DNA of 64,000 nt, taken from positions 1,178,001 to 1,242,000 of the forward strand of contig CM075990.1 of the NCBI GenBank assembly GCA_038087875.1. The letters run 5' to 3'. The stretch comes from Malacoraja senta (taxonomy: Eukaryota). The stretch's first letter is position 1; each line of letters starts with the position of its first letter. The notes below the pieces were generated by a model. That model was not told the origin of the DNA, did no database searches, and worked only from the letters and a program-made list of their open reading frames with translations. The position numbers and the translations under genes were made by a program. This document shows positions 3,761-49,543 of this stretch, one piece after another.

Positions 3761-6504
3761 TTGTGTGATCATTTTCTGAATAGTTTCATCCTAACACTGC
3801 ACACAGCAGCACAGTGGGGCAGCTGGTACAGTTGCTGCCTCACTTCATCAGAGACCCAGGTTCGATCCTGATCACCCGTACTGTCTATGTATGGAGTTTG
3901 CATGTTCTACCTGTGACCATATGGGTTTCCTCCGGGTGCTCCGGTTTCCTCCCACATCCCAAAGACGTGCGGGTTTGTAGGTTAGCACTCTGTAAATTGC
4001 CCCAGTGTGTATGGAGTGGATGAGAAAGTGGAATAACATCGAACTAGTGTGAATGGGCGATGGATGATCGGTACACTCGATGGGCCAAGGGCTCGTTTCC
4101 TTGCTGTCTCTAAACTAAAAAAAACGGAACAGGTTAGTGAAAGAGCTGATGTCAAGCTGTTGACGTAACATATTGTGTCATATCTCCTCTGTCTCCAGTG
4201 GAATCTGAATAATGCTAAAGCTACAGAAATGTGTTGCACCAGCGGAAATATCTGAAAAAAAAATATTTTTACTGATGGACTTCTTCTTTTATGGTTTCCA
4301 AATGGATAAGTCTCTTTGTGCAACAGGGGCCTGAGCTATTCCAACAGCTGAAACAGGCGGTGGTGTGACCCTCCTACCCAATGTCATCAACCTCTCCTCA
4401 CCCTTCATTCCCCACAGTGCTGGTATCTCAGCTTCACACAGTCTTGTACTGCAGAGTATTAGTTTGATGTGGATCTGGTGCTTCCTATGGTAGGCCCCGC
4501 AGGAGCCTGGGGCTCGGCTGGACCGGTCCCTGCTCCAAGAGGCCGAGCGTGTGGACCAGACCCGGCGTACAGCGGTGGAGCAGCACCGGAGGACACCACG
4601 GCTACGCTTGGCCAGGCCAACCCTGCAACGTCGCCATGACAACGGGCCTTCATGGTCAGGTCAAGTTCCCTGCACTAACAACAACAGGGACTTGAAAATG
4701 GCGGCAAACTTGTGACTCTGTATCCTGTCTCAGTGTACTACTGCTATACACATGCACAGTATCTGAGATGCTTATCTAACATGTATATAAGTGCTTATGT
4801 ATAGTGATATATGTAATGTACTGAACTGTATACAAAAACTAATTTCACTGTATCTCGGTTCATAGGACAATAAATTACCATTGAACCACTGAAATGGTAC
4901 TGAGGATCAAGGTTATCCTGGAGAATGGAAAACCCTAGCCCTACCATGGTTCCACATGGTTTAGGGTGGCTCGGCAGCGCAGTGGTAGAGTTGCCGCCTC
5001 ACAGCACCAGTGACCCGGGTTCGATCCTGACTACGGGTGCTGCCTGTATGGAGTTTGTACGTTCTCCCCGTGACCACGTGGGTTTTTTCCACGTGCTCCG
5101 GTTTCCTCCCACACGCCAAAGACATACAGGTTTGAAGGTTAATTGGCTTCTGTAAATTATCCCTAGTGCGTAGAATAGAACCATTCTATGGATGAGCGTT
5201 GCATCAGGAAGTCTGGAAATATTCTCAAGTTTGCCAGCCACCTCCTCTACCTTGTGGGAGAAGATCATAAGATCGTGATAGCAGAATTAGGCCATTTGGC
5301 CCTTCATGTCTACTCTGCCATTCACTGATGGTTGATGTATCTCTCCCTCTCAACCCCATTCTCCTGCCTTCTCCCCATAACCTCTGACACCCGTACTGAT
5401 CAAGAATCTATCTATCTCTGCCTTCAAAATATCCACTGACTTGGCCTTCACAGCCTTCTGTGGCAAAGAATTCCACAGATTCACCACCCTCTGTCTCCAA
5501 CCACCTGTCTCTGTCCCTTTACAAAGTATCTAGAAATAGCTGAGAGCCCAAGCACTGGGACAATATTGACAATGTAGAACCAAAAACGATGGATAAAGAG
5601 AAGGGAGAATAGGAAGCAAATTAGTGGAAAATATAAAGATGGGCAGCAGGACCTTCTGTGGTTAGTGGAAAGGAAAATACTAGCAAGGACAAACTTGAGT
5701 GCCACGGTAAGTTCACAGACAACACGGAGTCCCTTAGAATTAGGGACAGGAGACTTTACAAATGGGAAAAAAGAAAATGGCAGAGGAATTAAACAGATTA
5801 ACCAAAACCATTATTTCCTCATCAATCAATTCTGGACATTCCTACACGTTGGGGGGGGGGGGGGGGAGGGGGGGGGGTAGAAATGTGATCCTGCTATCTA
5901 AAAAATGAGGGAGAGAGAAACAAGGAGTGCCTGGAATGCCAAGGTTATGAGTATGTTAGCCTGACATCGGTAATTGAGAAAACACAGGAGACTGTAATTG
6001 AGGAAGTGATGTCAAGATACTTAGAAAATAGCAATATATGTTTAAGAAAGGAAAATCATGTTCTGCTTATGGATATATGCTCGAGACAGAGTGTTTAATT
6101 GTCATATGTACCGAAAACCAGAACAATTAATTTCTTACTTGCAGCAACATAACCTCTGCAAACACAGTACTCATAGGTAACATAATAGAGACATAGAGTG
6201 ATACAGCGTGGAAACAGGCCCTTCGACCCGACTTGCCCTCACTGGCCAACATGTCCCAGCTACACTTGTCCCACCTGCCCGCATTTGGCCAGTATCCCTC
6301 CAAACCTGTCCTATCCATGTACCCGTCCTACTAACTAAATAATAAACCCAAAAAATTAAATAAATTAAAGAAATCAATATTGGTGCACGAAAAAGTCTCT
6401 CGTACAACGAAGCCAGTTTGTAGCTGTGTGCAATACCAGTTCAGCACTTGTAGTCTTCAAGTTATCTGACTAGTTGCATAAATAAGGGAACACGCAGAAC
6501 ACGG

Positions 6505-6800
6505 TGGGTGGCCACGGTGACGCAGCGGTAGAGTTGCGGTGCCGGAGACCCAGGTTCGATCCCGACTATGGGTGCTGTCTGTGCGGAGTTTGTAAATTCT
6601 CCCCGTGACTGCGTGGGTTTTGTCCGAGATCTTTGGTTTCCTCCCACACTCCAAAGACGTAGGTTTTATTGGCTTGTTGTATGTGGAAATTGTCCCTAGT
6701 GTGTGCAGGATAGTGTTAATGTGCGGGGATCGCTGGTTGGTGCGGACTCAGTGGGTCGAAAGGCCTGTTTCCACGCTGTATCACTAAACTAAACTAAACA
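6505..6800 (+). mobile_element. HE1-type tRNA-derived V-SINE (representative of ~20 copies)
   Basis: A-box/B-box head (GGTGxCGCAGCGGTAGAG...GGTTCGATCCC), conserved core, CR1-like tail with (TAAAC)n. Other copies near 3805(+), 4965(+), 9139(-), 13235(+), 25351(+), 30430(-), 31750(+), 34350(+), 35517(-), 38315(-), 40330(+), 58355(+), 62318(+). Confidence 0.85.
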
Positions 6801-7554
6801 CAGGTTTTTGGATTTTCGGTCTTTTGGATTTCACTGCTGGTGCACATGGCATTGATGGTGATATCATCGCCTGGATTGAGAGCTGGTTAACAGGTTGACT
6901 ACTGATGATCTGGTCCTGGTTGTTGGGCTGTGGTTAGTGGGAGCTGCAGGGACTGTTCCTGGCAGCTATTGTCTGGTTTGGACGAACGGGATGAAATCAG
7001 CCAAAACTCAAAGCATCACAGCTCAGAATTCATCTAATGCTTATTGACACCATGACACAACTACTAAATACCAATTATACAACATATGTTACACGGTGGG
7101 GTAGCAGTTAGTGCAGATGTCAGCTTCAGCGACCTGAGTTTGATCTTGACCTCTGGTGCTGTCTGTGTGGTGTTTGCATGCTCTCCCTGTGCGTGTGTCC
7201 AAAATGATTACATCCGTGATAACGGATTGAATGGCCCTATAGCAGAAGCGTCCACGTCGCGGGGTTGGAAACTGGAAGTATCCTGAGCTAATTCTGCTAC
7301 CACCATCATCTATTGCAACAAGTGATGGCTTCCACTGATTGTCGACGGAAGCTTGCGTCCTTTTCAGGATGGACGGTGACAGCTAGGTCAACATTTGTAA
7401 CAAAATGGACTCGAAAGAAGAAGAATGGATTGAATCCAACCCTCCTTTTGTGATCGTCCCTTCTGTGTCCAGCTTATTCTACGCACCTTAACCCAATCAC
7501 TCCTGCATCATCAATTTTCAATGAAACAATGTGATCAGAAATCCACTCCTGCCT

Positions 7555-10850: not shown

Positions 10851-11139
10851 CGTAGGAAGAAACTGCAGATGCTGGTTTAAATCGAAGGCAGACACAAAAA
10901 GCTGGAGTAACTCAGCGGGTCAGGCAGCATCTGTGGAGAGGAAGGGTCTCGACCCGAAGCATCAACTCTTCCTTTTCTCCAGAGGAAACAGGCTGAGCCG
11001 CTGTTACTCCAACCTGTTGTCTCTGTGAAAACTAAAGCTTCCCCTGTTCTTCGGTTACACATGGACAATAAACTAAACCTGTTTAGGTCTGAGGGGAGGA
11101 GAAATGTCCTGACTGCGAACCGAGGGTGGTGAGTGTTTG

Positions 11140-12359: not shown

Positions 12360-15300
12360 CAAGAAGACAGGGGAGTTGTGGTGGAGGGGTGTTAGTCTGG
12401 CTGGGAGTCTGTGACCATGTTCTGCAAGGATCTGTGGTGGGACCTCTGTTGGAAGTAATATATATAAACAACTTGGACATAATTGTAAATGGGTTGGTTA
12501 GTCATTTTGCAGACAACACTAAAATTGGAGGAGTTGCAGGCAGGGAGGATGGCTGTCGAAGTGTATCGTGGAGTAACTCAGCGGGACAGGCAGCATCGCT
12601 GGAGAGAAGGAATGGGTGACATTTCGGGTCGAGAGCCTTCTTCAGACCCATCTTGACCCCAAACGTCACCCACTCCTCTCTGGAGATGCTGCCTGTCCAG
12701 TTGAGTTACTCCAGCTTTTTGTGTCTATCTTCGGTTTAAACCAGCATCTGCAGTTCCTATCGACACAAAGTATATCGTGGGGTGTAGGTCAGCTACAGAT
12801 ATGGCGGCAGATGCATTTACATCTGAACAAGTGTAAGATGTTACACTTTGGGAGATTAAATGTAAGGCAAAAGTATACAGTAAATGGCTGGACCCTTAGC
12901 AGCATTGAAGTGCAGAGGGATCTTGGGGTCCAAGTCCATAGCTCCATGAAAGTGGCAATGCGAGGGTAGAGGGTGGTAAAGAATGACATGCTTGCCTTCA
13001 TCTGTCAGGGGATTAAGTAGAACAATCAGTAAGTCATGTTGCAGCTTTATAGGACATTGGTTCGACTACATGTGGAGTATTACGTGCATTACTGGTTGCC
13101 CCATTACAGGAAGGATGTGAAGGCTTTGGAGCGGATGCACACGATATTTACCAGAATGCTGCCTGGATTAGAGGAGAGGCAAAGATAGGGTAGACACAGA
13201 GCCTATTTTCCAAGGTGAAAATGTCACATAGAATGGTGACGTACAGGTAGAGCTGGTGCCTCACAGCACCAGAGACCTGGGTTTGATCATGACTACGGGT
13301 GCTGTCCATACAGAGTTTGTATGTTCACCCCGTGACCACGTGGGTTTTCTCCGGGATCTTCGATTTCCTACCACACTCCAAAGATGTACAGGTTTATAGA
13401 TTAATTGGCTTGGCATAAATGTAAACATATAAAATTGTCCCTAGTGTGTGTAGGGTAGTGTTAATGTGTGGGGATCGCTGGTTGGCACAGACTCAGTGCG
13501 CCAAAGGGCCTGTTTCCGCGCTGTATCTCTAAACTAAACTAAACTAAAGTAGATGCCTTGGCTTTAGGATGAAAGGGGCAAAGTTTGGAGGAGATGAGCA
13601 CTTTTTTGCAGAGAGGGTGGTGGGTCCCAGGAACATGCTGGTGGTGTGGGCAGTTATGACAGTGGCATTGAAGCTTTTAGGTGGGCACATGGGTATACAG
13701 GGAATGGAGGGAAAAGGATCACGTGCATGCAGAGGAGACTGGGGATATTCAGCGTGGCTTTGTGTGTGGGTAGATCAGGTCTCACTAACTTGAGTTTGTT
13801 GAGGAGGTGTCAAAGAGGATTGATGATGTTGTCTCCATGGACCTTCAGCAAGCACCTTGGCAAGGTAGGCTGGTTCGGGCGGTTAGTGCACATGGGATTC
13901 GGGGCAAGCTAGTCAATTGGATACAAAATTACCTTGAAGGTGGGAGACAGAGAGTGGTAGTAGTGGCGGTAGGGGGGTTGTTTTTCAAACTGGAGGCCTG
14001 TAACAAGGGGTGTACCACAGTCATCGGTGCTGACCTTACTGTTGTTCATTATTTACACTAACTATTTGGATGAGAATGTAGATGAAATGGTTATGTTCAT
14101 AAGACATAGCACCAGAATTAGGCCATTCAGCCAATCAAGTCTGCTATTTAATTCGATCACAGCCAATCTATTTTTCCCTTTCAACCCTATTTTCCTTTCA
14201 TCTCCCGGTAACCTTTGACATCCTTACAAATCAAGAACCTATCAATCTGTACTTTAAAAATACCCAATGACTTGGCCTCCACCGCCATCTGTGGCAATGA
14301 ATTCCACTGATTCACCACTCTCTGGCGAAATAAATTCCTCCTCATCTCCATCCTTTTATTCTGAGGCTGTGCACTGTGCTCCTAGATGCTCCCACTACTG
14401 GAAACATCCACTACATTATTTGGTAGATTTCAATGAGATTCCCCTCATACTATTAAATCCAGCGAATACAGGCCCAGAGCCATCAAACGCTCCCCATACA
14501 TTAACCCACTCATCTCTGAGATTATTCTCATAAGCCTCCTCTGGATCCTATCTAGAGCCTGCACATCCTTCCTCAGATGTGGGGCCAAAAACTGCTCACA
14601 ATATTGCAAATGTGGTCTGAGCAGCACCTGATAAAGCATTGGCATTACATCCTTGTTCTTATATTCTAGTCCTCTCGAAATAAATGTTAGCATTGCATTT
14701 GCCTTCCTTAGTACTGGCTCAACCTACAAATTAACCTTTTGGGAATCCTGCACCAGCACTCCCAAGTCTCATTGCACCTCCAGTTTCTGAATCCTCTCCC
14801 CATTTAGAAAATAATCTACCCCTTATTACTTCTAGCAAAGTTCTTTGCCCTGTCTCCCAACCTGTCCGAGACCTTCTGCAGAGTCCCTGCTTCCTCAAAA
14901 CTACCTGTCCCTCCACCTATCTTCATATCATCCACAAACTTGGCCACAAAGCCATCAATTCCATTGATGTTATTAAGCTTGTGGATTACACGTACATTGG
15001 TGGTATAGTGGACAGTGAAGAAGGGTATCTAAACTTACCATGGCACCTTGATCAACTGGACCAATAGGCCAAAGAATGGCAGATGGATTTTAATTAAGAT
15101 TAATGCAAGGTGTTGCATTTGCGTAAGACAAACCAGGGCAAGATTTGTGCAGTAAATGGTAGGATCCTGGGATGGGTGACAGAACAGAGAGACCAAGTGG
15201 TGTGGCTACATTGTTCCTTGAAAGGTAGACAGGGTGGTGAAGAAGGTGTTTGGCATGCAGGTCTTCATTGGTCATAGTGATACAGCATGGAAACAGATCA

Positions 15301-17756: not shown

Positions 17757-19480
17757 ACAGAGTCATAGAGATGGATATACAGCACGGAAACGGGCCCATC
17801 GGCCCACCTTGGCATTCTGGGCTAATCCCATTTGCCTGCATTTGGCCTATTGTCCTCTAAACCCTTCCTAGCCATATATCTGTCCAAATGTTTTTTAAAG
17901 TTGTAATTGTATCCACTACGATAGCTTCCTCTGGCTGCTCATTCCAGATGTGAACTGCCCTCTGTGAAAATGTTGTCCTCATCTCAGTCCTAAATTGTCT
18001 ACCCCTTATTCTTAAACTGTGACCCCTGGTTCTGGACTCCCCCAAAATCGGGAACATTTGAGGAAGGACATTCTTGCTATTGAGGGAGTGCAGCGTAGGT
18101 TTGCAAGGTTAATTCCCGGGATGGCGGGACTGTCATATGCTGAGAGAATGGAGCTGCTGGGCGTGTACACTCTGGAGTTTAGAAGAATGAGAGGGGATCT
18201 CATTGAAACATATAAGATTGTTAAGAGTTTGGACACGCTAGAGGCAGGAAACATGTTCCCGACGTTGGGGGAGTCCAGAACCAGGGGCCACAGTTTAAGA
18301 ATATGGAGTAAGCCATTTATAACGGAGACGAGGAAACGCTTTTTCTCACAGAGAGTGGTGAGTCTGTGGAATTCTCTGCCTCAGAAGGCGGTGGAGGCAG
18401 GTTCTCTGGATGCTTTCAAGAGAGAGCTAGACAGGGCTCTTAAAAATAGCGGAGTCAGGGGATATGGGGTGAAGGCAGGAACGGGGTACTGATTGGGGAT
18501 GATCAGCCATGATCACATTGAATGGCGGTGCTGGCTCGAAGGGCCAAATGACCTACTCCTGCACCTATTGTCTGTTGTCTATTTTTCCTGCATCTTGCCT
18601 GTCCAATCCCTTAAGAATGTTGTATGTTTCTGTAAGATCCCCTCCCATCCTTCTAAATTCCAGTGAATACAGTATAAGCCCAGTCGACCCATTCTTTCAT
18701 CATATGTCAGTCCCGCCATCCTGGGAATTAACCTGGTGAACCTACGCTGCACTCCCTCAATAGCAAGAATGTCCTTCCTCAAGTTAGAGCAAAACTGCAC
18801 ACAATACTCCAGGTGTGGTCTCAACAGGGCCCTGTACAACTGCAGTAGGACCTCCTTGCTCCTAAACTCAAATCCTCTCGCAATGAAGGCCAACATGCCA
18901 TTTGCTTTCTTCACTGCCTGCTATAACTGCATGCGTACTTTCAGTGACTGATGTACAAGCACACCCAGGTCTCCTTGCACATCCCCTTTTCATAATCTGA
19001 CACCATCAAATATTAATCTGCCTTCCTGTTCTTGCCATCAAAGTGTATAACCTCACATTTGTCCACAGTATACTGCATCTACCATGCATCTGCCCACTCA
19101 CCCAATCTATCCAAGTCACCCTGCAGCCTCACAGCATCCTCCTCGCAGCTCACACTGCCACCCAGCTTTGTGTCATCCGCAAACTTGGAGATGTTACATT
19201 TAATTTCCTCTTCCAAATTGTTAATATATATTATAAACAACTGGGGTCCCAGCACTGAACCTTGCGGCACCCCATTAGTCACTGACTGCCTTCTGAAAAG
19301 GACCCGTTAATTCCAACGCTTTGCTTCCTGTCTGCCAACCAGTTCTCTATCCATGTCAATACCCTACCCCCAATAACATGAGCTCTAATTTTGCACACTA
19401 ATCTCTTGTGTGGGACCTTGTCAAAGGCTTTTTGAAAATTCAGATACACTACAGCCACTGGCTCTCCCTTATCCATCCTA
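17757..19480. mobile_element. CR1 composite: minus-strand fragments flanking a younger plus-strand 3' end (~18053-18580)
   Basis: KDILAIEGVQRRF...LWNSLPQKAVEAGSLDAFKRELD on +; [10 protein letters not shown] and FADDTKLGG on -. Confidence 0.9.
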
Positions 19481-24098: not shown

Positions 24099-24156
24099 CC
24101 CTTAGGATTTCCCTTTCCCAAATCAACGTGGACTGTTCAATCCAAACACTCTTCTC

Positions 24157-25129
24157 AAGGTAGACACCAAATGCTGGAGTAACTCAGTGAAACGGGCAGC
24201 ATCTCTGGAGAGAAGGAATGGGTGACGTTTCAGATCGAGATCCTTCTTCCCTATTGCGTCTAGGGGGAAGGGGAACAAGGGTGAAGTTGCGGGGTACCGA
24301 GGAGACACGGGTGAGGGCCCCATCTATGACGCCCATTCCCTAAAGAATGCGGACATCTCGGATGTCCTGGTATGGAATGCCTCATCTTGGGTGCAGATGT
24401 AGCGTAGACAGAGGAATTGGGAGTAAGGGAAAGAGTATTTGCAGGAAGCAGGGTGGGAAGAAGTGTAGTCGAGATAGTTGTGGGAGTAAGTGGGTTTGTA
24501 ATAGACATCATGTGATGGAGACGGTGAGATCAAGAAAGGGGAGGTGTCGGAGACGGTCCAAGTGAATTTGAGTGCAAGATGGAAATTGGTGGTGAAGCTG
24601 ATGAAGTCCATGAGTACTGCATGGGTGCAGGAGGTAGCACCGATGCAGTTGTCAACGTATACAACATTGCCAAACACTTTAATGCTCGCTCCCATTCCCA
24701 CACTGACCTTTCTGTCCTATGCCTCCTCCATTATCAGTGAGGCTAATCGCAAATTGGAAGAACAGCATTTCATATTTCACTTGGGCAGCTTACCACCCAG
24801 TGGAATGAATATTGATTTATCTAACCCCTGCACTCCTTCTCCCGCCATCCCTCCCCACCCAAGTCGTACCAGGTTCCCGTTCTCACCTAACAATGGCCTG
24901 TTTCCTTTATCATCGTCACTTTTTTGCATACTGTGTCTTTCATTCATATTCTATATCTCTGCATCACTGTCTATATCTCTCGTTTCCCTTTCCCCTGACC
25001 TGTCTGAAGAAGGGTCTCGACCCGAAACGTCACCCATTCCTTCTCTCCAGAGATGCTGCCTGTCTCGCCGAGTTACTCCAGCATTTTGTGTCTTCCTTCA
25101 GTTTAAACCAGCATCTGCAGTTCCTTCCT
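24157..25129. mobile_element. Penelope-like element insertion with inversion: RT fragment plus terminus on -, GIY-YIG tail plus 3' terminus on +
   Basis: Minus ORF YVDNCIG...LKFTW...VYYKPTYSHNYLDYTSSHPASCKYSFPYSQFLCLRYIC (PLE RT thumb); plus strand RKLEEQHFIFHLGSLPPSGMNID; flanking direct repeat ACACTCTTCTC at 24146-24156 and 25130-25140. Confidence 0.85.
25004..25031 (+). ncRNA. Minimal type-I hammerhead ribozyme motif in a PLE terminus
   Basis: CUGAAGA-A-GGGU(CUCG)ACCC-GAAAC-GUC; palindromic ACGU stem III; stem I weak. Confidence 0.65.
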
Positions 25130-25994
25130 ACACTCTTCTCCAGGTTCTCGGCTTTAGTCATGGCCTCCAGCATTTTCCACTGCTGATGTCATGCCGATGG
25201 TCCATAATTCCCTTATATCTCTGTCTCCTTTGTTAAACAGTAGGGTTACAATAGCGACTGATCCATAGGATCCACAGAAACAACAAAAATGACCAGCCAC
25301 TACTTTCAGTCACTTCCTTCCAAACTCTGATATAAAGACTCTGGAAGGATCGGCGTAGTGGCACACGGGTCGAGGCACTGCCTCACAGCGCCAGAGACCC
25401 GGGCTTGATCCTGACCTCAGGTGCTGTCTGTGTGGAGTTTGCACATTCTCCTTGTGACCGCATGGGTTTTCTCCAAGTGCTCTGCTTTCGTCCCTCATCC
25501 CAAAGACGTGCTGTTTTGTAGGTTAATTGGCCTCTCTAATATTGTCCCTGGTGTGTAAGGAGTGTACAGTATGTAAGTGGGATAACAGAACTAGTGTGAA
25601 CAGGTGATGGTTGTCATGCACTCAGTGGGCCTAGGGGTCCATGCTATATCCCTAAAAATTTAAATAAAACTAAACCTGGGAATTTATGAGATGGTTTTTC
25701 AATTTCACTAACACCATTTCATAGTAATATGATTTAATTTAATTTCTCCCTCTCACCACATCCTGTTCTTCTACATTTCTGTAAGGTTCCTCTTTCGTGA
25801 AGACAGATTCAAAAAATTATTTCATTGTTCCGCAATATACATTCTCCCAATTCTGACCATAAGGAACCTACATTTGTTTTTCATGAGTGTTTCTCTCTTC
25901 ACGTATTTCCAGAAGATTTTATAAGCTAGGAGCGAGTTGTTATGTTCTTTACGGGCAAGCTACCATTCTCCATGCTCCCCTTCATAATTAATCC

Positions 25995-29375: not shown

Positions 29376-29520
29376 TTACGGCCATACTTGCCTTATTATA
29401 TTCTCCGACTTTGGCCCAATATTTTCCCTCATTTCTTTCATGAGCTGCGATTGAGTTACCCTCCCTGATCAATTTTGTGCCTGACAGGAAGGAATGACGG
29501 CTGAAATTAATCTGTACTCT

Positions 29521-30131
29521 TTAGACTTTTGGACTTTAGAGATACCGTGTGGAAACAGGCCCTTCAGCCCACCAAGTCTGTACTGACCAGTGATCACCCA
29601 TACACTAACATTATCCTACACATTACGGACAATTTACAATTCCTACCGAAGCCAATTAACTTACAAACCTGCACGTCTTTGGAGTGTGGAAGGAAACTAG
29701 AATACCCAGAGAAAACCCACGCGGTCACAGGGAGAACGTACAAACTCCGTAGACAGCACCCATAGTCGGAATCGAACCCTGATCTCCGGCGCTGCATTCG
29801 CTGTTAGGCAGCAACTCTACCGCTGCGCCACCATACCGCCTTACACGGCTTGCAGCGCCAAAGACCCGGGTTCAATCCCGACCACGGTTGCTGTCTGTGC
29901 GGAGTTTGTACGTTCTCCCCGTGACCTGCGTGAGTTTTCTCCGAGATCTTTGCTTTCCTCCCACACGCCAAAGACGCACAGATTTGTAGGTTAGTTGTCT
30001 TGCTAAAATGTAAAAATTGTCACTATTGTGTGTAGGATAGTGTTAATATGTGAGGATCGCTGGTCGGCGCGGACCCAGTGGGCCGGAGGGCCTGTTTCCG
30101 CGCTGTATCTCTAAACTAAACTAAACTAAAC
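29521..30131. mobile_element. Head-to-head pair of HE1 SINEs (minus ~29521-29835, plus ~29843-30131)
   Basis: Two near-complete SINEs in opposite orientation, almost abutting. Confidence 0.85.
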
Positions 30132-33255: not shown

Positions 33256-35191
33256 GCCTCAGATATGTCTGCTATATCTAGAGATATCTGATATCTCTAA
33301 ACTAAACCAAGTCAGAGGGTAAGATGCAAAAGCAATAGGAAATGTTTAATGTCGGTGTTCAGTGAAGTACAAGAAAAGGGAACATGAAACATAAAAGGTT
33401 TCCATGCTGCATAGAGTTATACAGAGGCCATTTATCAGAATGATGCGTGGATTAGGGAATATTAACTACTGGGTTGGACAAGACGGATGAAAAACATAGA
33501 GACATAGAAAATAGGTACAGGATTAGGCCCTTTGAGCCAGCTCCGCCATTCAATATGATCATGGCTGATCATCCAAAATCAGTATCCTGCTTTTCCCCCA
33601 TAACCCTTTATTCTGTTAGCCCTCAGAGCTATATCTAACTCTCTCTTGAAAACATCCAGTGAATTGGCCTCCAATTCTTTTCTTTGGAATGCCAGAGGTT
33701 GCGGGGAGACCTGTTGTAAAATTATGAGAGACATAGATAGGGTAGAGAGTCAGAATCTATTTCGCCGGATGGAAAAATCAAATACAAGAGGGCATAGATT
33801 AATGTGAGCGAGGAAACGTTGAAAAGATGTGTGGGGAAAGTAATTTACACAGAAAGTGGCGAGTTTCTGTAATGTGCTGCAGGGGTGGTGGTGGAGGCAG
33901 AAACGATAGTAGCATTTGGAGACTTTTGGATAGGCACTAGGATGTGAGAAATGGATAGATATGGATAATGTGCGGGCAGATAAGATTGGCTTTGGCATCA
34001 TGTTCAGCACAGACATTGTGGGCCGAAGGACCTATTCCTTTGCTATACTGTTGTACGTTCTGTTACGGTAGACAGCCCTCAGTATAGAATTCCCCCGATC
34101 CCGAACCAGCCCTTATATACACCCTGGTGGCACATCTGGTAGAGCCCCTACTTCACAGTGCCTGAGACCTCGAGTTCAGTCGTGACCTTGACTTCTGTTT
34201 GTGTGGAGTTTGCACGTTATGGAGTGTCGGGGCACAGTGGGAGCAGGAGGTATTAGGAGATATCTACTCTCGATACCATTCAACTCCAGATCGAACAACA
34301 CCCGCCGAGCAGCTCCAGGAGAGGTTAAAGCTGTTGAAGGAGGGAGAAGGGTGGCACAGTGGCGCAGCGGTAGAGTTGCTGCATTATAGAGCCAGAGAAC
34401 CGGGTTCAATTTCGACTGCACAGAGTTTGTACATTCTCCCTGTGACCGTGTGGGTTTTCTCTGGGTGCTCTGGTTTCCTCCCATACTCCAAAGACGTACA
34501 GGTTTGTGGGTTGATATGCTTCTGTAAATCGTCCCTCGTGTAGTATAGAACTAGTGTACAGGTGATCACTGTTCGGTGCGAACTCGCTGGGCCGAAGGGC
34601 CTGTTTAAACGCTGTATCTCAAAACTAAACATAAAAGGTAGCTTCCGCACTGGGAACCATACCATACTTCTGCTCTGTCACAAACCACCTCATTAATCCA
34701 AAATGTTGTCTTGTTGCTCTTAAGAAGCATCTTGTTGCTCTTAATCTCCACACCGTTACTCATTTTCTGCAAGCTTATCCTTATCAGATTGGAGAGCGTC
34801 AGAAATGTACAAGTTTGCAGCTACACGCATTTCTGCCTCTTATGCTGGGAAGTGTGTGGCTCAGTGGAACAGATCCAGATCAGTGATGAACTTCGTGTCA
34901 TTGCTCACAGAAACCACACGCCATGAGTCGGGCACTTTCAGTTTAGATCTGGTGGACCAGAAACATGGAAATGGGTAGTGGTTTTCACACCGGATACGTT
35001 GGGAGGTGTGAACGCAGCGTGACACAGCACTCCCAGAACGTGGGCGATACACTTTGCTTCCACTGACCCTGGAAGAGTTGAATCGGATGGTGCAGAGAGA
35101 GGGATCTTTGTTCCTCGTCAACCCCTGCCACCCCTTTTTTTCTTTAACTTTTATTACAAATTCACAGTTTACAAAGTACTGCATTGATCAA

Positions 35192-35414
35192 GATAGACAC
35201 AAAATGCTGGAGTAACTCAGCGGGACAGGCAGCATCTCTGGAGAGAGGGAATGGGTGACGTCTCGGGTTGAGACACTTCTTCAGACTGAGAAGGGTCTCG
35301 ACCCAAAACATTATCCATTCCTTCTATCCAGAGATGCTGCCTGTCCTGCTGAGTTACTCCAGCATTTTGTGTCTATCTTCAGTTTAAACCAGCATCTGCA
35401 GTTCCTTCCTACAC
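35192..35414. mobile_element. Fold-back PLE terminus dimer
   Basis: Inverted arms of ~90 nt; TSD ACTGCATTGATCAA at 35178-35191 and 35415-35428. Confidence 0.85.
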
Positions 35415-36653
35415 ACTGCATTGATCAAACCTGCTGTTCCTGCAGTTTGCAAACATCGACCATCATATCACAGCATTGTCAGTCGTATCCATGACGCACT
35501 CGAGCCCCAGCAGCGATTAGCTTAGTTTAGTTTAGAGATACAGCACGGACACAGGCCCTTCGGCCCACCGAGTCTGTGCCGACCAGCGATACCCGTACAC
35601 AAACACAATCCCACACACACTAGGGACAATTACAATTTTACCAAGCCCATTAGCCTACAAAGTTAAACGTCTTTGGAGTGTGGGAGGAAACCGTAGTTCC
35701 CGGAGAAAACCCACGCGGGTCACGGGGAGAACGTACAAACCCCGTACAAACAGCACCCGTAGTCAGGATCGAACCCAGGCCTTTGGCACTGTAAGGGTCA
35801 TAAGGTCATAAGTAATAGGAGCAGAATTAGGTCATTCGGCCCATCAAGTCTACTCCGCTATTCAATCATGACTGATCTATCTCTCCCTCCTAACCACATT
35901 CTACTACCTGCGCCCCGTAACCCCTGACACCTGTGCTAAGCACGAATCTGTCCATCTCTGCCTTCTGTAGCAGAATCTCTACCACTGTACACGTGCCACC
36001 TGCTTAGCATTTTCTCCCCTTGTGCTCCCTCTCCAGGGACATGCGGGCACAGATGTAGACCGCAAAGAGGGCCTGGCAGTCAAAGGGGGCATGACTCTTG
36101 ACTGTTTCCACGCTGTATGATGCTATGAGATTATGACAAGAGTAGGCACCAGGCATGGGGAACAGCCGCTGGTTAACAACCAGTGTCAGCCCTGGCAGGA
36201 AAGCATGAGGCCTTCCAGAACTGCTACTTTCCCCTCAAACTCTGCCCAGTTTGCTGACCAGGCTTCTTGGGTGGAGAAACAAGGAACTGCAGATGTTTGC
36301 TTACAAAAAAAAGGACACAAAGTGCTGGGGTAATTCAGTGGGTCAGGCAGCATCTCTGGAGGACATGGATAGGCGATGTTTCTGGTCATGACTTCGTCAA
36401 GGGTTCGATGTGGAGCTTGGTTGGATTCCTAGAAAGAGGAAGTGCTCTTAGTGCTCCATATAAATGGTCACATCCCCTCCAGCAGGGAATCCACCCACCC
36501 ACCACAGACCAACCAGGGACCCAGAACAATTGTCCCAGTTCATTCGTCAGGAGGGCAGAGCAGGAGAGGCCTTCTAGTACTCACACACTGTCGATGAGAC
36601 ATCACCAAGAGGACCTCTTCATCGGCCAAAGCTGAGAGAATGACTACCATGAC

Positions 36654-39040: not shown

Positions 39041-39534
39041 GGGCCTGTCCCACGAGCATGCTACTACATGCGGCTAGTGCGACCTAACGTGGTCGCTTGA
39101 GCCGTACGGCCTCGCGGGGCCGGTCCCACTTCGATCGCCGGAGCCGTATGGAGTTGTGCGGAGCTGGTCCCGACATCGAGCGGGGCTCCGAAAAACTGAC
39201 ACTGTTCAAAATTTCCACGCGGCAATGGCCTGCCGGCCCGCAGCCACCTCGATGACGTAAGCACTGCCTCGACGGGCGTGCGCAGCGTCTCGACGCCGTA
39301 CACAGCGTCTTGACGCCGTACATCACGCGTGAACTTCCCGCGGACTTTGCTCGAACTTCACGTCACTCACTCGACCTCCGCGCAGCCCCCGCTTCCGGTT
39401 TGGTCGCGCTCGCCGTATGCAGTCGCATGCTGGTGGGACCGGCCCTGTGCGGGGATCACTCGACCTCCGCGCGGCCCCCGCTTCCGGTTTGATCGCGGTT
39501 GCCGCGTGCAGTCGCATGCTGGTGGGACAGGCCC
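39041..39534. mobile_element. CpG-rich MITE, probably PIF/Harbinger
   Basis: TIRs GGGCCTGTCCCAC(G/C)AGCATGC; right flank TTTA; left TSD not evident. Confidence 0.7.
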
Positions 39535-41935: not shown

Positions 41936-42521
41936 TACAGTAACAGACCATTTAGCCAACCTGAACATAATGACAAGTTAAACTCATCACCTACCTGTAC
42001 ATGATCCATATCTCGCCATTTCCTGCATACTATATGCCTGTGTAAAAGACTCTATTGTATCTGCCTCCACCACCACCCCTGGCAGTGTGTTTCAAGTGCA
42101 CAGCATGCTTTGCATAAAACAAAACTTGCTCAACACATCTTAAAGCTATGCCCTCTGGTCTTTGGCATTCCAACCTCCAAGTTGCAGTGTGAACATCACA
42201 TTTTCATTCCTGATGTCTGCTGATGAGTGATCTGGAAATAGTGTCAGCTGAGCAGTAAACACCTCACCCAGTTACTTTCCAGACGAGCTATCCAATCTCT
42301 GCCAATCCTGGCCGATGTGGTCCGTGACAAGTTAAGGAACGAGCCTTCGTGATAAAGCATGCACTGCCTCCATCCTGATCATAAGCATCTGTGAATTAGC
42401 TGTATGGGTTCTTGGAGGACAGGATTGGAAAGAGAGGGACTGATCAGAGACAGCCAGCATGGTTTTGTCAATCTGATTGAAATCGTTGAAGAGTGTATTG
42501 ATGACAGTACAGTGGATGTTG

Positions 42522-42698
42522 AGAAAAATGCTGGAGAAACTCAGCGGGCGCAGCTGCATCTATGGAGCGAAGGAAATAGGCAACGTTTCGGCCCGAAACG
42601 TTGCCTATTTCCTTCGCTCCATAGATGCTGCTGCACCCGTTGAGTTTCTCCAGCATTTTTGTCTACCTTCGATTTTCCAGCATCTGCAGTTCTTTCTT
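42522..42698. mobile_element. Fold-back PLE terminus dimer (second subfamily), near-perfect palindrome
   Basis: Arms of ~67 nt centred on AACGTTTCG-GCC-CGAAACGTT (~42592); TSD GTACAGTGGATGTTG at 42507-42521 and 42699-42713. Confidence 0.9.
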
Positions 42699-43186
42699 GT
42701 ACAGTGGATGTTGTTTCCTTGGACTTCGGTAAGGTCTTTGATAAGGACCTATATGGGAGACTGATCCGAAGGTTAGGGCCCATGTGCTCCAGGGTAACTT
42801 GGCAAACTGGATCACTCTCCTGTTTTGTATTTTGTTTCACAAGCTACTTATCTGTGTTCTTCCTTGTGACGTGAGCAACATTTACACCTTTAAGATAACG
42901 GTTGCCGGGAAACGAATGCTCGTCCAGTCGCATGAGATGTCCTAGTTTCGGTTCTTCTGGGAATTATCATCCAGTCATACAGCACGGATCTGGCCCTTCA
43001 GCCCAACTTGTGCATGCCGTCCAAAGTTGCCCCTCCTACACTAGTCCCACCTGCCCGCATTTGGCCCATATCCTTCTAAACCTTTCCCATCCATGTATCT
43101 GTCCAAGTGTCTTTTAAATGTTGTTATAGTAACTGCTTCAACTAACTCCTCCGTCAGCTTGTTCCATATACCCACTACCCTCTGTA

Positions 43187-46220: not shown

Positions 46221-46313
46221 AAAACAAACAATGCCCCCTAATGTGGTTTAGCAATTATTTGGAGGTTGTAGTGTTGAATAGCCTGATGGTTGCAGGGAAG
46301 AAGGTGTTCCTGA

Positions 46314-46699
46314 GGGTACACAAAAATGCTGGAGAAACTCAGCGGGTGCCACAGCGAGCAACACCGTAAATTGGAGGAAATGCACCTCATATTCCGCTTG
46401 GGCAGTCTACATCCTGGGGGCTTGAACATTGAATTCTCCCAATTCTGCTAGCCCTTGCTGTCCCCTCCCCTTCATCAGCCATCTGGTTGTCTCCTCCCCT
46501 CCCCCAGCCCTCGGGCTCCTCCTCCGCCTTTTTCCTTTTTTCCTTTCTTCTCCCCACCCCCTATCAGTCTGAAGAAGGGTTTCGGCCCGAAACGTTGCCT
46601 ATTTCCTTCGCTCCATAGATGCTGCTGCACCCGCTGAGTTTCTCCAGCATTTTTGTGTACCTTCGATTTTCCAGCATCTGCAGTTCCTTCTTTAACAAC
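46314..46699 (+). mobile_element. PLE (second subfamily) 3' fragment with a short inverted 5' arm
   Basis: HRKLEEMHLIFRLGSLHPGGLNIEFSQFC*; TSD AAGGTGTTCCTGA at 46301-46313 and 46700-46712. Confidence 0.85.
46569..46596 (+). ncRNA. Minimal hammerhead motif, subfamily B
   Basis: CUGAAGA-A-GGGU(UUCG)GCCC-GAAAC-GUU. Confidence 0.6.
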
Positions 46700-48134
46700 A
46701 AGGTGTTCCTGAAGCTGGACGTTACAGTTTTCAGGTTCCTATATCTTCTTCCCCATGACAGGGGTGAAATGAGAGTGGGGCCAGGGTGGTGTGGGTCTCT
46801 GACTCCTGTAAATCCACTTGATGGTGGGGAGGTCAACGTTCACTTTTTGCAGTTTTCTTCGGTCCTGGGCGTTGAGGTTGCCGAGCCAGGCCGTGATGCA
46901 ACCAGTCAATATGCTCTCTACTGTAAACCTGTAGAAGTGCAAGAGAATCCTCTCTGACATAACAAATCTTTGCAATCTTCTCAGGAAGTAAAGGCATTGT
47001 CCTCACAAATGCCTTAAAGCAAAGTATTTAGGCTTGAAATGTGTGTTTAGGTTTATTATTGTCACATGTTCCAAGATACTGTGGAAAGCTTTGTTTTGCA
47101 TTATATCCAATCAGATCAGATATACAATACATAAATACAATCAACTCAAACTCGGTAAAGCAAATGGGAAGATACAGAGTGCAGAATATATCTCAGCATT
47201 GTGACGGGTCAGTTCCATAGACAAAGTCCAATGTCCACAATGGGGTAGAGGTGAATCGGACAGTACTCTAGCTTATGGGAGGACCATTCAGAATGCCTGA
47301 ACACAGAGGGGAAGAAGTTGTTCCCGAGTATGGTTTGTCTGCAGAACACAACACAATCGGTTACCATGGAGCTCACAGTAGAGACGGCTTCAGTCAGTGT
47401 TACCTTATCGTAAAGCAAGTACATACATCCAGCCCACCAGCACCACAGGCTGTCTGTGCACAGAGTGCCACAGGTCAGTGCATGTTCATTCATGCGACTG
47501 CCTGCTTTCTTTGCAAAAGGTAAGGCACCTTTTGTCTATCCTTCTTCTCCCCCTCCCCCAACTCCTTACCCTCCCCCTCCTTAAGCTCAGCAATTACCAT
47601 CATCACCTCACAAAAACTCACAGGTTTGTCAGAGAACACCTGTCCCAGACTGGTCACACTGACGGCCTCAAATTAACCCATTCCCTTCCAAGTGCGAGGA
47701 AATTCCATCCCCAAGAATCCTCTCCAATTGCTTCTCTACCAGACGTGAGGCTCACCAGTCTAGAATATCCTGGATTATTCCTTCTTCCCATAAACCAGGG
47801 AACAATGTCAGATACTCGAAGGTACACAAAAATGCTGGAGAAACTCAGCGGGTGCAGCAGCATCTATGGAGCGAAGGAAACAGATACTCTCCAGTCCTGT
47901 GGGATCTCACCTGTGGCTAGAAGGAATACAAAGATCTTTGTTGAGCCCCCAGTAATTTCCTCCCTTGCCTCTTTCAATAATCGCAGATAGATCCCATCAT
48001 ACCCTAGGTATTTATCCACTTTAATGCTCTTCGATCTCCGACACCACCTCCTTCTTGATCTCAAACTGCCCTAGCATATTTATATTCTCCACACTGATCT
48101 CAATGTTCTCCATGGCCTGCTCCTTAGTAAATAC

Positions 48135-49543
48135 CAAAGATCATAGAGCGGAGCAAGATGGTTCACTCCGCGAAAAAGCCGTAGTAGGTGATGGGTAATC
48201 TTCAGCAACATTTCCGTAACCGGTTTCCGTCATGGCGTTGAGCTAATTCAGGGACATTCTGCTATATCAGGCTGAGAGACTAAAGGATAGACACAAAATG
48301 CAGGAGGTCGGGCGGCATTTCTGGACAAAAGGAATAGGTGACATTTTGGGTTGAGACCCGTCTTCAGACTGAGTCAGGGGAAAGAGGAACGCAAACCATC
48401 CTCCCCACCACCTTCCCTCCGACACGGACACGGACACGGACACGGAGCGATCGCCGACCTCCCTTTTTTTTTGTTAAACATCTTCGGGTGTTTATTTTTA
48501 ATTTCCCCCTTACCACTTCCATACTTTGTCAATAGCTGCCATAACCCGTTTGATGTCATCCTTCACCCTGCTCCTGGTCTCGGCCCGCACCGATCTGCTG
48601 GACATGCTGTGTGTGTGTGTGTGTGTGCGTGTGTGTTGGTTTGGCGGAGTCTGAGGGGAGAAACGTCGGCACCAAGAGCGAGCGAGCGAACACGCGGACA
48701 GACAGACGAAAGCAACGATCATAGAGCGGAATAGGTGACATGTCGGGTCAAGACCCTTCTTCAGACTGAGTCAGGGGAAAGAGGAACAAGAGATATAGAT
48801 GGTACTAAGGACAAATGAATGGAAGATATGGCTATACCTCCCATTTCCCTTTCCCTTGACTGTCAGTCTGAAGAAGGGTCTCGACCCGAAATGTCATCTA
48901 TTCCGCTCTATGATCGTTGCTTTCGTCCGTCTGTCCGCGCGTCCGCTCACTCTTGGTGCCGGCAGACTCCGCAGAACAAACACACACACACAGCATGTCC
49001 GGCAGAAGAGGCCAAGACTGGGCCAAGACCAGGAGCAGGGCGAAGGATGACGGGTTTTGGCAGCTATCGAAAAAGTTGAACTGAAATATTACCTAGTCCG
49101 TTTCTCCAGAGATGCTGCCTGATCTGCTGATTTACTCCAGCCTTTTGTCTGTCTTCGGTTTAAACCAGCATCTGCATACCTTGTCCTCCCTGTACAAGGT
49201 ATGTGCCGTTTTCGTGTGTATTAGCGTGTGTCCAGTCAGATTAACAATCACGCAAGTTTCCACACACACACTTACTTCAGCAGATAGCGACCAAGGCAGT
49301 GCTGACAGTGATGGGGGGAATTGATGAGGGTTTACTGCATTTAAAAAGAAAATTAAAAAAAACATTTAAAACAATTAAAAACACACAAATGGTTCCCCCA
49401 CAATGCTCATTACACTGCGAGAGACATAACTGAAGTCAGGTCGGGTTTACTGAAATGGCGGAAGTTACGCTCCGGTGCGTACTACACGTCAGTCCATTGG
49501 ATTTCCCAGGAGTGGACCATCTTGCTCCGCTCTAAGATCTTTG
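48135..49543. mobile_element. Non-autonomous DNA transposon with 35-bp TIRs and 8-bp TSD (P-like or hAT)
   Basis: TIR CAAAGATC(A/T)TAGAGCGGAGCAAGATGGT(T/C)CACTCC at 48135-48169 and 49509-49543 (2 mismatches); TSD GTAAATAC at 48127-48134 and 49544-49551. Confidence 0.9.
48868..48895 (+). ncRNA. Minimal hammerhead motif inside a DNA transposon
   Basis: CUGAAGA-A-GGGU(CUCG)ACCC-GAAAU-GUC. Confidence 0.5.

Follow-up and report, generated by a model that had tools for sequence, protein, structure and literature searches.

The short inverted repeats that recur in the window (the whole 64-kb stretch of DNA analysed here) are, in our reading, the shortest insertions of an EN+ Penelope-like element (PLE), and we put the probability at roughly 0.7 that each hairpin was made during insertion by joining the 3' ends of two cDNAs whose synthesis had been primed separately. 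What the genome displays is the anatomy of the products, and the mechanism is read back from these genomic products throughout.

Inverted PLE termini in the window and the genome

The copy at 42522 is flanked by an exact 15-bp target-site duplication (TSD; 42507..42521 and 42699..42713, both on the + strand) and consists of a short arm on the - strand (42522..42591), which is an A-type PLE terminus running from the +18 palindrome to about +88 without the tail, and a long arm on the + strand (42593..42698), which runs from +19 through a tail of ~34 nt (the C of CTGAAGA in the terminus is numbered +1). The two arms meet in a 15-nt near-palindrome (GTTTCGG-C-CCGAAAC, 42585..42599) whose centre at 42592 corresponds to model position +18, and the centre base, read from the sequence, is the long-arm allele. 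A second hairpin (35178..35428) is of B-type, with its axis at +0.5, the short arm to the left, the long arm to the right and an exact 14-bp TSD (35178-35191/35415-35428), and a third (12559..12780), also of B-type, has its axis at +3.5, a short arm ending at +77 and a 13-bp TSD with one mismatch (12559-12571/12768-12780). A decayed hairpin (10851..11024) has the long arm on the left (10851-10943 on the - strand, 10938-11024 on the + strand), an axis at +22.5 and a weak 12-bp duplication with two mismatches. The inverted arms of the first three match at 93% (42518-42591/42593-42666), 89% (35190-35280/35289-35379) and 85% (12569-12609/12673-12713).

All four of these tail-out pairs had been listed in a preliminary description of this DNA and were recovered, as were the TSDs of 13-15 bp that it gave for the first three (15 exact, 14 exact and 13 with one mismatch). 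It had also described one full and one truncated arm per copy; the arms are indeed unequal, but the truncation is not random, as the short arm ends at about +87 to +98. Its placement of the axis at 42592 in the loop of stem II does not stand, because the axis lies at +18 and stem II is centred on +14.5. Absent from that list were two further tail-out pairs that represent longer forms of the same event, each within a 16-bp TSD with one mismatch: the insertion at 24146..25145 has a short arm at 24154-24249 (-) and a long arm at 25002-25133 (+) preceded by 328 nt or more of the element, among it the end of the ORF, and the A-type insertion at 46298..46712 has a short arm at 46309-46355 (-) and a long arm at 46566-46696 (+) with its minimal hammerhead core intact and a further 218 nt of the element upstream. 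In all, the HMM finds 32 arms of the PLE terminus within the window. One public run, which may be the source sample, has contigs that span the two junctions of the 42522 copy and are identical there to the window; an empty site of this copy was seen in none of the contig joints displayed for four runs, and in one other organism a contig enters its left arm by 27 nt. The best Rfam matches at three of the window hairpins are sub-threshold miRNA models.

Other features of the window were observed in passing. Nested inverted repeats at 48555-49051 contain two PLE arms that stop at +37 (48728-48767 and 48865-48904) and sit inside longer inverted flanks, which is not the usual long/short pattern, and inverted pairs of other repeat families lie at 6197-6785, 17967-18782, 29520-30130, 34565-35590 and 39041-39534. 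At 7221-7298 (+), an Rfam match to the CPEB3 (HDV-like) ribozyme scores 36.6 bits against a gathering threshold of 35 and possibly marks the 5' end of another retroelement.

We extended the analysis to a survey of 1.264 Mb comprising the window and 120 ten-kb stretches (100 dispersed and 20 flanking the window), in which 554 terminus arms were found. Neighbouring arms lay less than 60 nt apart in 103 of 160 tail-out pairs but in just 10 of the 138 tail-in and 19 of the 151 tandem ones, an excess that shows the hairpin arrangement not to be due to chance. A hairpin was defined as a tail-out pair with a gap below 60 nt, a definition that enriches for short 5' extents, and 102 hairpins with overlapping model positions were analysed. 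Extrapolation from the 98 located outside the window gives about 160,000 hairpins per genome (~159,000; 129,000-193,000, Poisson error only). Exact TSDs of 11-19 bp, mostly 13-17 bp with a mode of 14, flank 57 of 79 A-type loci, and an exact duplication of at least 10 bp arose by chance in 3 of 300 random controls. The lengths thus tabulated are not fixed, contrary to what a DNA-transposon MITE would show; that identity was rejected, as the two ends differ by the tail, TSD length varies and the parent encodes RT and GIY-YIG. A clear TSD of at least 10 bp was seen at 11 of 70 young solo arms versus 16 of 40 young hairpins, and since many solo arms lack one, two-ended priming may not be obligatory.

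The 57 A-type loci also exhibit a weak, partly mirror-symmetric target preference, with an A three bases before the TSD in 34, a T three bases after it in 28 and G almost absent at its first base. Microhomology of at least 3 nt between target and RNA was seen at 12 of 44 short ends versus 5.4% expected, after 13 of the 57 rows with inserted bases were dropped, and is a weak signal.

The parent element and its hammerhead motif

At one long locus (L036) an open frame of 543 aa, which carries the RT motifs QIQGVAMGT and YIDD as well as YIGET, stops 117 nt before the same terminus. The frame has a CxxC-type linker, with CNRKRCNTC between RT and EN at the position described in PMC8557442. The Pfam GIY-YIG model matches this ORF with E=5.7e-4, under the curated cut-off, Atlas neighbours at 0.97 carry RVT_1 and GIY-YIG clusters, and a PDB sequence search with the ORF returned 0 matches. 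A terminus-ORF-terminus layout was detected in 4 of 20 long loci, with the 5' terminus ~2.4-2.5 kb upstream of the RT query and in the same orientation, and in long copies the terminus is preceded by a pyrimidine-rich stretch and the ORF end. Searching the genome with the RT region yielded 2310 candidates, of which the 40 scored showed 99-100% identity. Judged by sequence, the parent of the hairpins is an EN+ PLE with a single ORF (RT, then a C-terminal GIY-YIG) linked to the terminus, possibly a Neptune-like one of the Neptune/Nematis clade. In the unbiased sample the shared flanks past the tail (11 of 217) were other repeats; element sequence past the tail was found in targeted loci. The A-type elements L251-L256 and L267 are nearly identical (99%), which is suggestive of recent activity; about 4.1 kb separates their termini, an ATG follows the 5' tail by 33 nt, and the part upstream of RT contains a proline-rich region of internal repeats.

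The consensus of 87 full arms fits a minimal hammerhead (CUGANGA, an extra base, G10.1-C11.1, GAAA, NUH and a palindromic ACGT) and resembles the minimal hammerheads of metazoan PLEs (PMC4209133), which share the CUGANGA core, the extra base between 9 and 10.1, G10.1-C11.1 and the palindromic 15.2-16.2. Stem II pairs GGG at +9 to +11 with CCC at +18 to +20 around a centre at +14.5, the +18 near-palindrome pairs the GAAA core, and the predicted cut falls after +28. Helix I has only two pairs (U-A and G-C) in the consensus, against the 4-5 bp criterion of min-HHR; in D. virilis it is also 2 bp (PMC4209133). An Rfam scan of the window reported no hammerhead family at E<=1, and RNA folds of the termini were not better than those of shuffled sequences (z from -1.67 to 0.41). 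We regard the terminus as a putative minimal hammerhead, with self-cleavage a prediction. Strict cores are present in 76 of the 554 arms; the core is complete in both arms of 0 of the 102 hairpins and in neither arm of 82. The 42522 copy has lost CTGAAGA on both arms and so contains no ribozyme.

Non-LTR retrozymes (bioRxiv 10.64898/2026.07.22.740005) are likewise non-coding, derived from PLEs and furnished with a type I hammerhead. They are described as tandems in head-to-tail order that contain two or more complete ribozymes, whereas the hairpins are head-to-head and mostly without a complete core; with both cores complete in none of the 102, this identity was discarded. As a separate observation, one two-armed insertion (L205, G000:C15:11467000-11467600) holds 3-4 head-to-tail units of 44 nt, each with a hammerhead core, in which the +18 base alternates between C and G, a retrozyme-like mini-tandem that perhaps stems from repeated template jumps.

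Junctions, tails and the centre base

The symmetry axes of the hairpins range from -26 to +60, and 77 of the 102 lie within -10 to +26, a departure from uniformity for which the null range (-40 to +70) is an assumption. The claim that breakpoints cluster at the ribozyme thus holds as regards the clustering, and fails as regards the ribozyme as its cause, there being no excess at the cut site. Of the 206 5' ends of hairpin arms, 85 fall at -4 to +1, another 85 at +2 to +25 and 4 at +26 to +33. Among the 348 non-hairpin arms, 143 end at -4 to +1 (some of which may be rare subfamilies whose upstream sequence was unmatched in the sample), 67 continue upstream for 21-600 nt and 6 end at +26 to +33. 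Since the pile on the 5' side of the core is common to solo arms, this boundary is a property of the template and not of the hairpin. It is quite unlikely that the ribozyme sets the breakpoints, either by a cleavage that makes the template's 5' end or by a fold that stalls the RT: although many axes lie near the motif and 85 hairpin arms end inside it, ends at +26 to +33 are per base no more frequent than ends downstream, exact cut-site junctions number 0 in the genome, the main pile lies on the side of the core that the RT reaches last, and the motif has just two predicted stem I pairs and eludes Rfam. For the ends at +2 to +25, stalling at an RNA structure, or resection, may play a part.

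Two things account for the clustering: a 5' boundary shortly before the core, and short palindromes. The boundary is likely a transcript start, at TCAGT; it counts against this reading that 3 of the 4 long loci possessing a 5' terminus continue past this point in the upstream direction. Transcription of the D. virilis PLE begins 46 bp before a 75-bp intron, the end of which is located at helix I (PMC2377424, PMC4209133). Long copies here (e.g. window 46500-46568) display a splice-acceptor-like polypyrimidine tract followed by CAG at the place of the D. virilis intron end. A splice acceptor formed by this tract and the CAG before TCTGAAGA was considered and rejected, as 163 solo arms included no spliced-exon junction; 19 of these arms have a junction-abutting match of at least 12 nt in upstream element sequence, with no GT after the top matches shown.

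The majority of junctions occur once, and many contain a small insertion or duplication; no axis accounts for more than 5 of the 102 hairpins in this unbiased sample. Genome-wide, exact symmetric junctions of A-type were found 750 times at the 15-mer (+18) and 100 times at AACGTT, versus 0 exact loci at a non-palindromic control axis; for both types together there were 1059 at axis 0 (TCAG-W-CTGA), 91 at stem II and 55 at ACGT, all counts being of exact patterns of unequal length and subfamily age that compare only roughly. At asymmetric junctions the 5'-most sequence belonged to the short arm only in 20 cases and to the long arm only in 7 (p=0.019), and the more frequent presence of the short arm alone at the boundary fits an upstream-primed cDNA that finishes first.

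The 3' ends of the 554 arms have two modes separated by about 34 nt, which is the spacing of the PLE tail (PMC8557442), a tail that two RT start sites bound and explain (PMC11167929). The short arms of hairpins end where solo short arms end, at about +87 to +98, the second PLE start site, and the 70 young solo arms comprise 30 long and 34 short ones. Young copies with the axis at +18 (n=49) bear one tail in 45 cases, two in none and no tail in 4; a second young set with the stem II axis (n=20) bears one tail in 17, two in 1 and none in 2; and the unbiased 102 hairpins comprise 74 with one long and one short arm, 6 with both long and 15 with both short. Such a strict one-tail rule favours a single, asymmetrically bound RNA, with two RNAs possible, as concordance between arms cannot tell one RNA from two when the activity of the subfamilies may have been staggered in time.

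To discriminate between modes of formation, we read the base at the centre of the palindromes. With the tail-bearing arm placed on the right, the 45 copies with the axis at +18 have C 26 times and G 19 times, while parent sites have C 11,801 times and G 84 times (0.7% G of 11,885 exact sites). At axis 0 the ratio is T 6 to A 6 in 12 orientable loci (3 of 15 were not), and at the stem II axis (+14.5) it is TC 6 to GA 11 in 17 orientable loci (3 of 20 were not), two of the GA rows sharing one TSD and thus being one duplicated locus. These 49, 15 and 20 fetched loci were the first listed on contigs C1-C3, the +18 set being the first 49 usable places on C1 with one pair a duplicated locus. Identical TSDs nearby mark L172/L173 and L286/L287 as segmental or assembly duplicates, and the centre allele is the same within each pair.

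A near-even centre is what two cDNAs of equal polarity would produce, since their annealing across a palindrome leaves exactly such a central mismatch, and it argues against single-cDNA fold-back and against an amplified family, in favour of two separately primed cDNAs annealed at the palindrome. Fold-back would have one cDNA turn at a hairpin and copy itself, or an antisense RNA prime itself at a palindrome, as PMC3846280 proposes, reading the palindromes at inverted junctions as signs of self-priming on an antisense template. Junctions here do favour palindromes, the +18 hairpin is present in the predicted RNA fold, and subfamily variants are common to both arms of a copy (5/5, 9/10, 3/4 and 10/11). 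However, folding of a tail-primed cDNA yields the long-arm centre only, and folding of a cDNA primed at +95 cannot give the tail to the other arm, whereas 19 of 45, 6 of 12 and 11 of 17 copies combine the short-arm centre with a tail on the other arm; nor does fold-back predict a short arm that ends where solo short arms end. We consider it unlikely.

Amplification of the hairpin as a unit, in the manner of a retro-MITE, a retrozyme-like element or a DNA MITE, would account for the recurrence of the same +18 junction at 750 exact loci and for the near-full-length extent and 91-100% identity of 40 scored genome matches. A master hairpin would, however, tie the centre to the lineage, and each subfamily variant class contains both centre alleles, with arm-specific variants in only 0-2 of 41 copies per variable site. 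The low share of any one axis, the variable TSDs and asymmetric ends, the scarcity of complete cores and the existence of longer insertions with the same ends and TSDs speak against amplification as well, making it highly improbable.

Quasi-palindromes are known substrates for inversion and template switching between inverted arms, and a centre mixed by such events after insertion would be uninformative about formation. This too is decidedly improbable: 2 of 45 rare variants are indeed found in both arms, but the other 43 stay in one arm and copies with identical arms already show C 10 to G 8, which together make later conversion or inversion unlikely, and ownership of the 5'-most sequence is not randomised. 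Annealing of two separately primed cDNAs thus best fits the centre.

Integration of Penelope-like elements

We envisage the following course of events. A protein, probably a dimer, would cut both strands of the target about 14 nt apart; priming would occur from one 3' end where the tail ends (about +130) and from the other at the start site farther upstream (about +90 to +98), probably on the same RNA. Both cDNAs would extend towards the 5' boundary of the template, which lies shortly before the hammerhead core, either reaching it or terminating early. Because both have the same polarity, their ends could pair only at self-complementary spots, namely TCAG-T-CTGA (0), stem II (+14.5), the 15-mer of the A subfamily (+18) and ACGT (+25.5), and the central mismatch would be repaired either way; otherwise, end-joining would unite them and leave small insertions or duplications behind. 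On this view the sole relevance of the ribozyme motif would be to provide palindromes beside the template's 5' end.

The preliminary description had taken the hairpins for PLE retrotransposition products and not DNA-transposon MITEs, which is upheld by their being the terminus of an RT and GIY-YIG element with variable TSDs. Among the routes it offered, priming of two target ends on the same short RNA fits best; snap-back of cDNA at the ribozyme hairpin as a general route is not supported, given the 19 of 45 copies whose centre base comes from the tail-less arm, nor is a non-autonomous hairpin family, given a centre independent of subfamily variants and mostly unique junctions.

The architecture as such is already known from complex EN+ PLE insertions (PMC3846280, PMC8557442), which also combine an inverted 5'-truncated pLTR, a 30-40-bp tail at one end, a TSD and palindromes at junctions. 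The insertions described here differ in being 130-280 bp long, without ORF and present in about 160,000 copies, with a TSD mode of 14 and not 8-10, and their mixed centre base argues against the self-priming model of PMC3846280; their value lies in junction statistics that discriminate between integration models. A search of the open literature found no report of a centre-base test or a breakpoint map on the pLTR, and subscription papers and supplements may bear on this.

Work in vitro on Poseidon from Anolis carolinensis (PMC11167929) established two RT start sites that bound the tail and the cutting and extension of both strands, and it reports a predicted dimer and ribozyme mutants without effect on insertion. 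The accessible text of that study describes no hairpin products, pairing of start sites per strand or joining step. The choice of start site was equal between strands in vitro, so that the rule of one long and one short arm was not reproduced there, and Poseidon belongs to a different PLE clade in which the ORF starts at stem II, as compared to an ATG 33 nt after the tail here. Schistosoma has dual motifs on opposite strands, 100-700 bp apart (PMC4209133); junction positions are not analysed in the accessible part of that paper, and its cleavage-circle route would not yield the ends seen here. Twin priming and dual priming by LINE-1 (PMC2837659) are alike in that both target 3' ends prime cDNA and an inverted insertion results inside the TSD. 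In twin priming, however, the two cDNAs cover different parts of the RNA, while those of the hairpins cover the same ~100 nt from two fixed starts, can pair only at palindromes and make up a main product class instead of a minority variant.

As a tentative generalisation, PLEs may normally integrate by asymmetric two-ended priming: a dimer would cut with a stagger of ~14 nt, each of the two DNA ends would prime at its own start site on one shared RNA, the insertion would consist of two first-strand cDNAs joined by host repair and not of one cDNA followed by second-strand synthesis, and priming at the 5' pLTR would give a run-off cDNA of ~130 nt that ends at the transcript start next to the hammerhead. 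If true, asymmetric two-ended priming would explain the one-sided tail, the inverted pLTRs and the junction palindromes by one rule, and would replace the antisense self-priming model.

These repeats resemble MITEs or microRNA precursors and should be annotated as PLE insertion products. The later steps of PLE insertion are described as unvalidated in PMC11167929, and PMC3846280 calls for experiments to decide between models. With some 160,000 minimal products, many of them young, this genome amounts to a large natural experiment on PLE insertion; models of integration can be told apart by the centre-base ratio and the one-tail rule, which also yield concrete predictions for the existing in vitro system.
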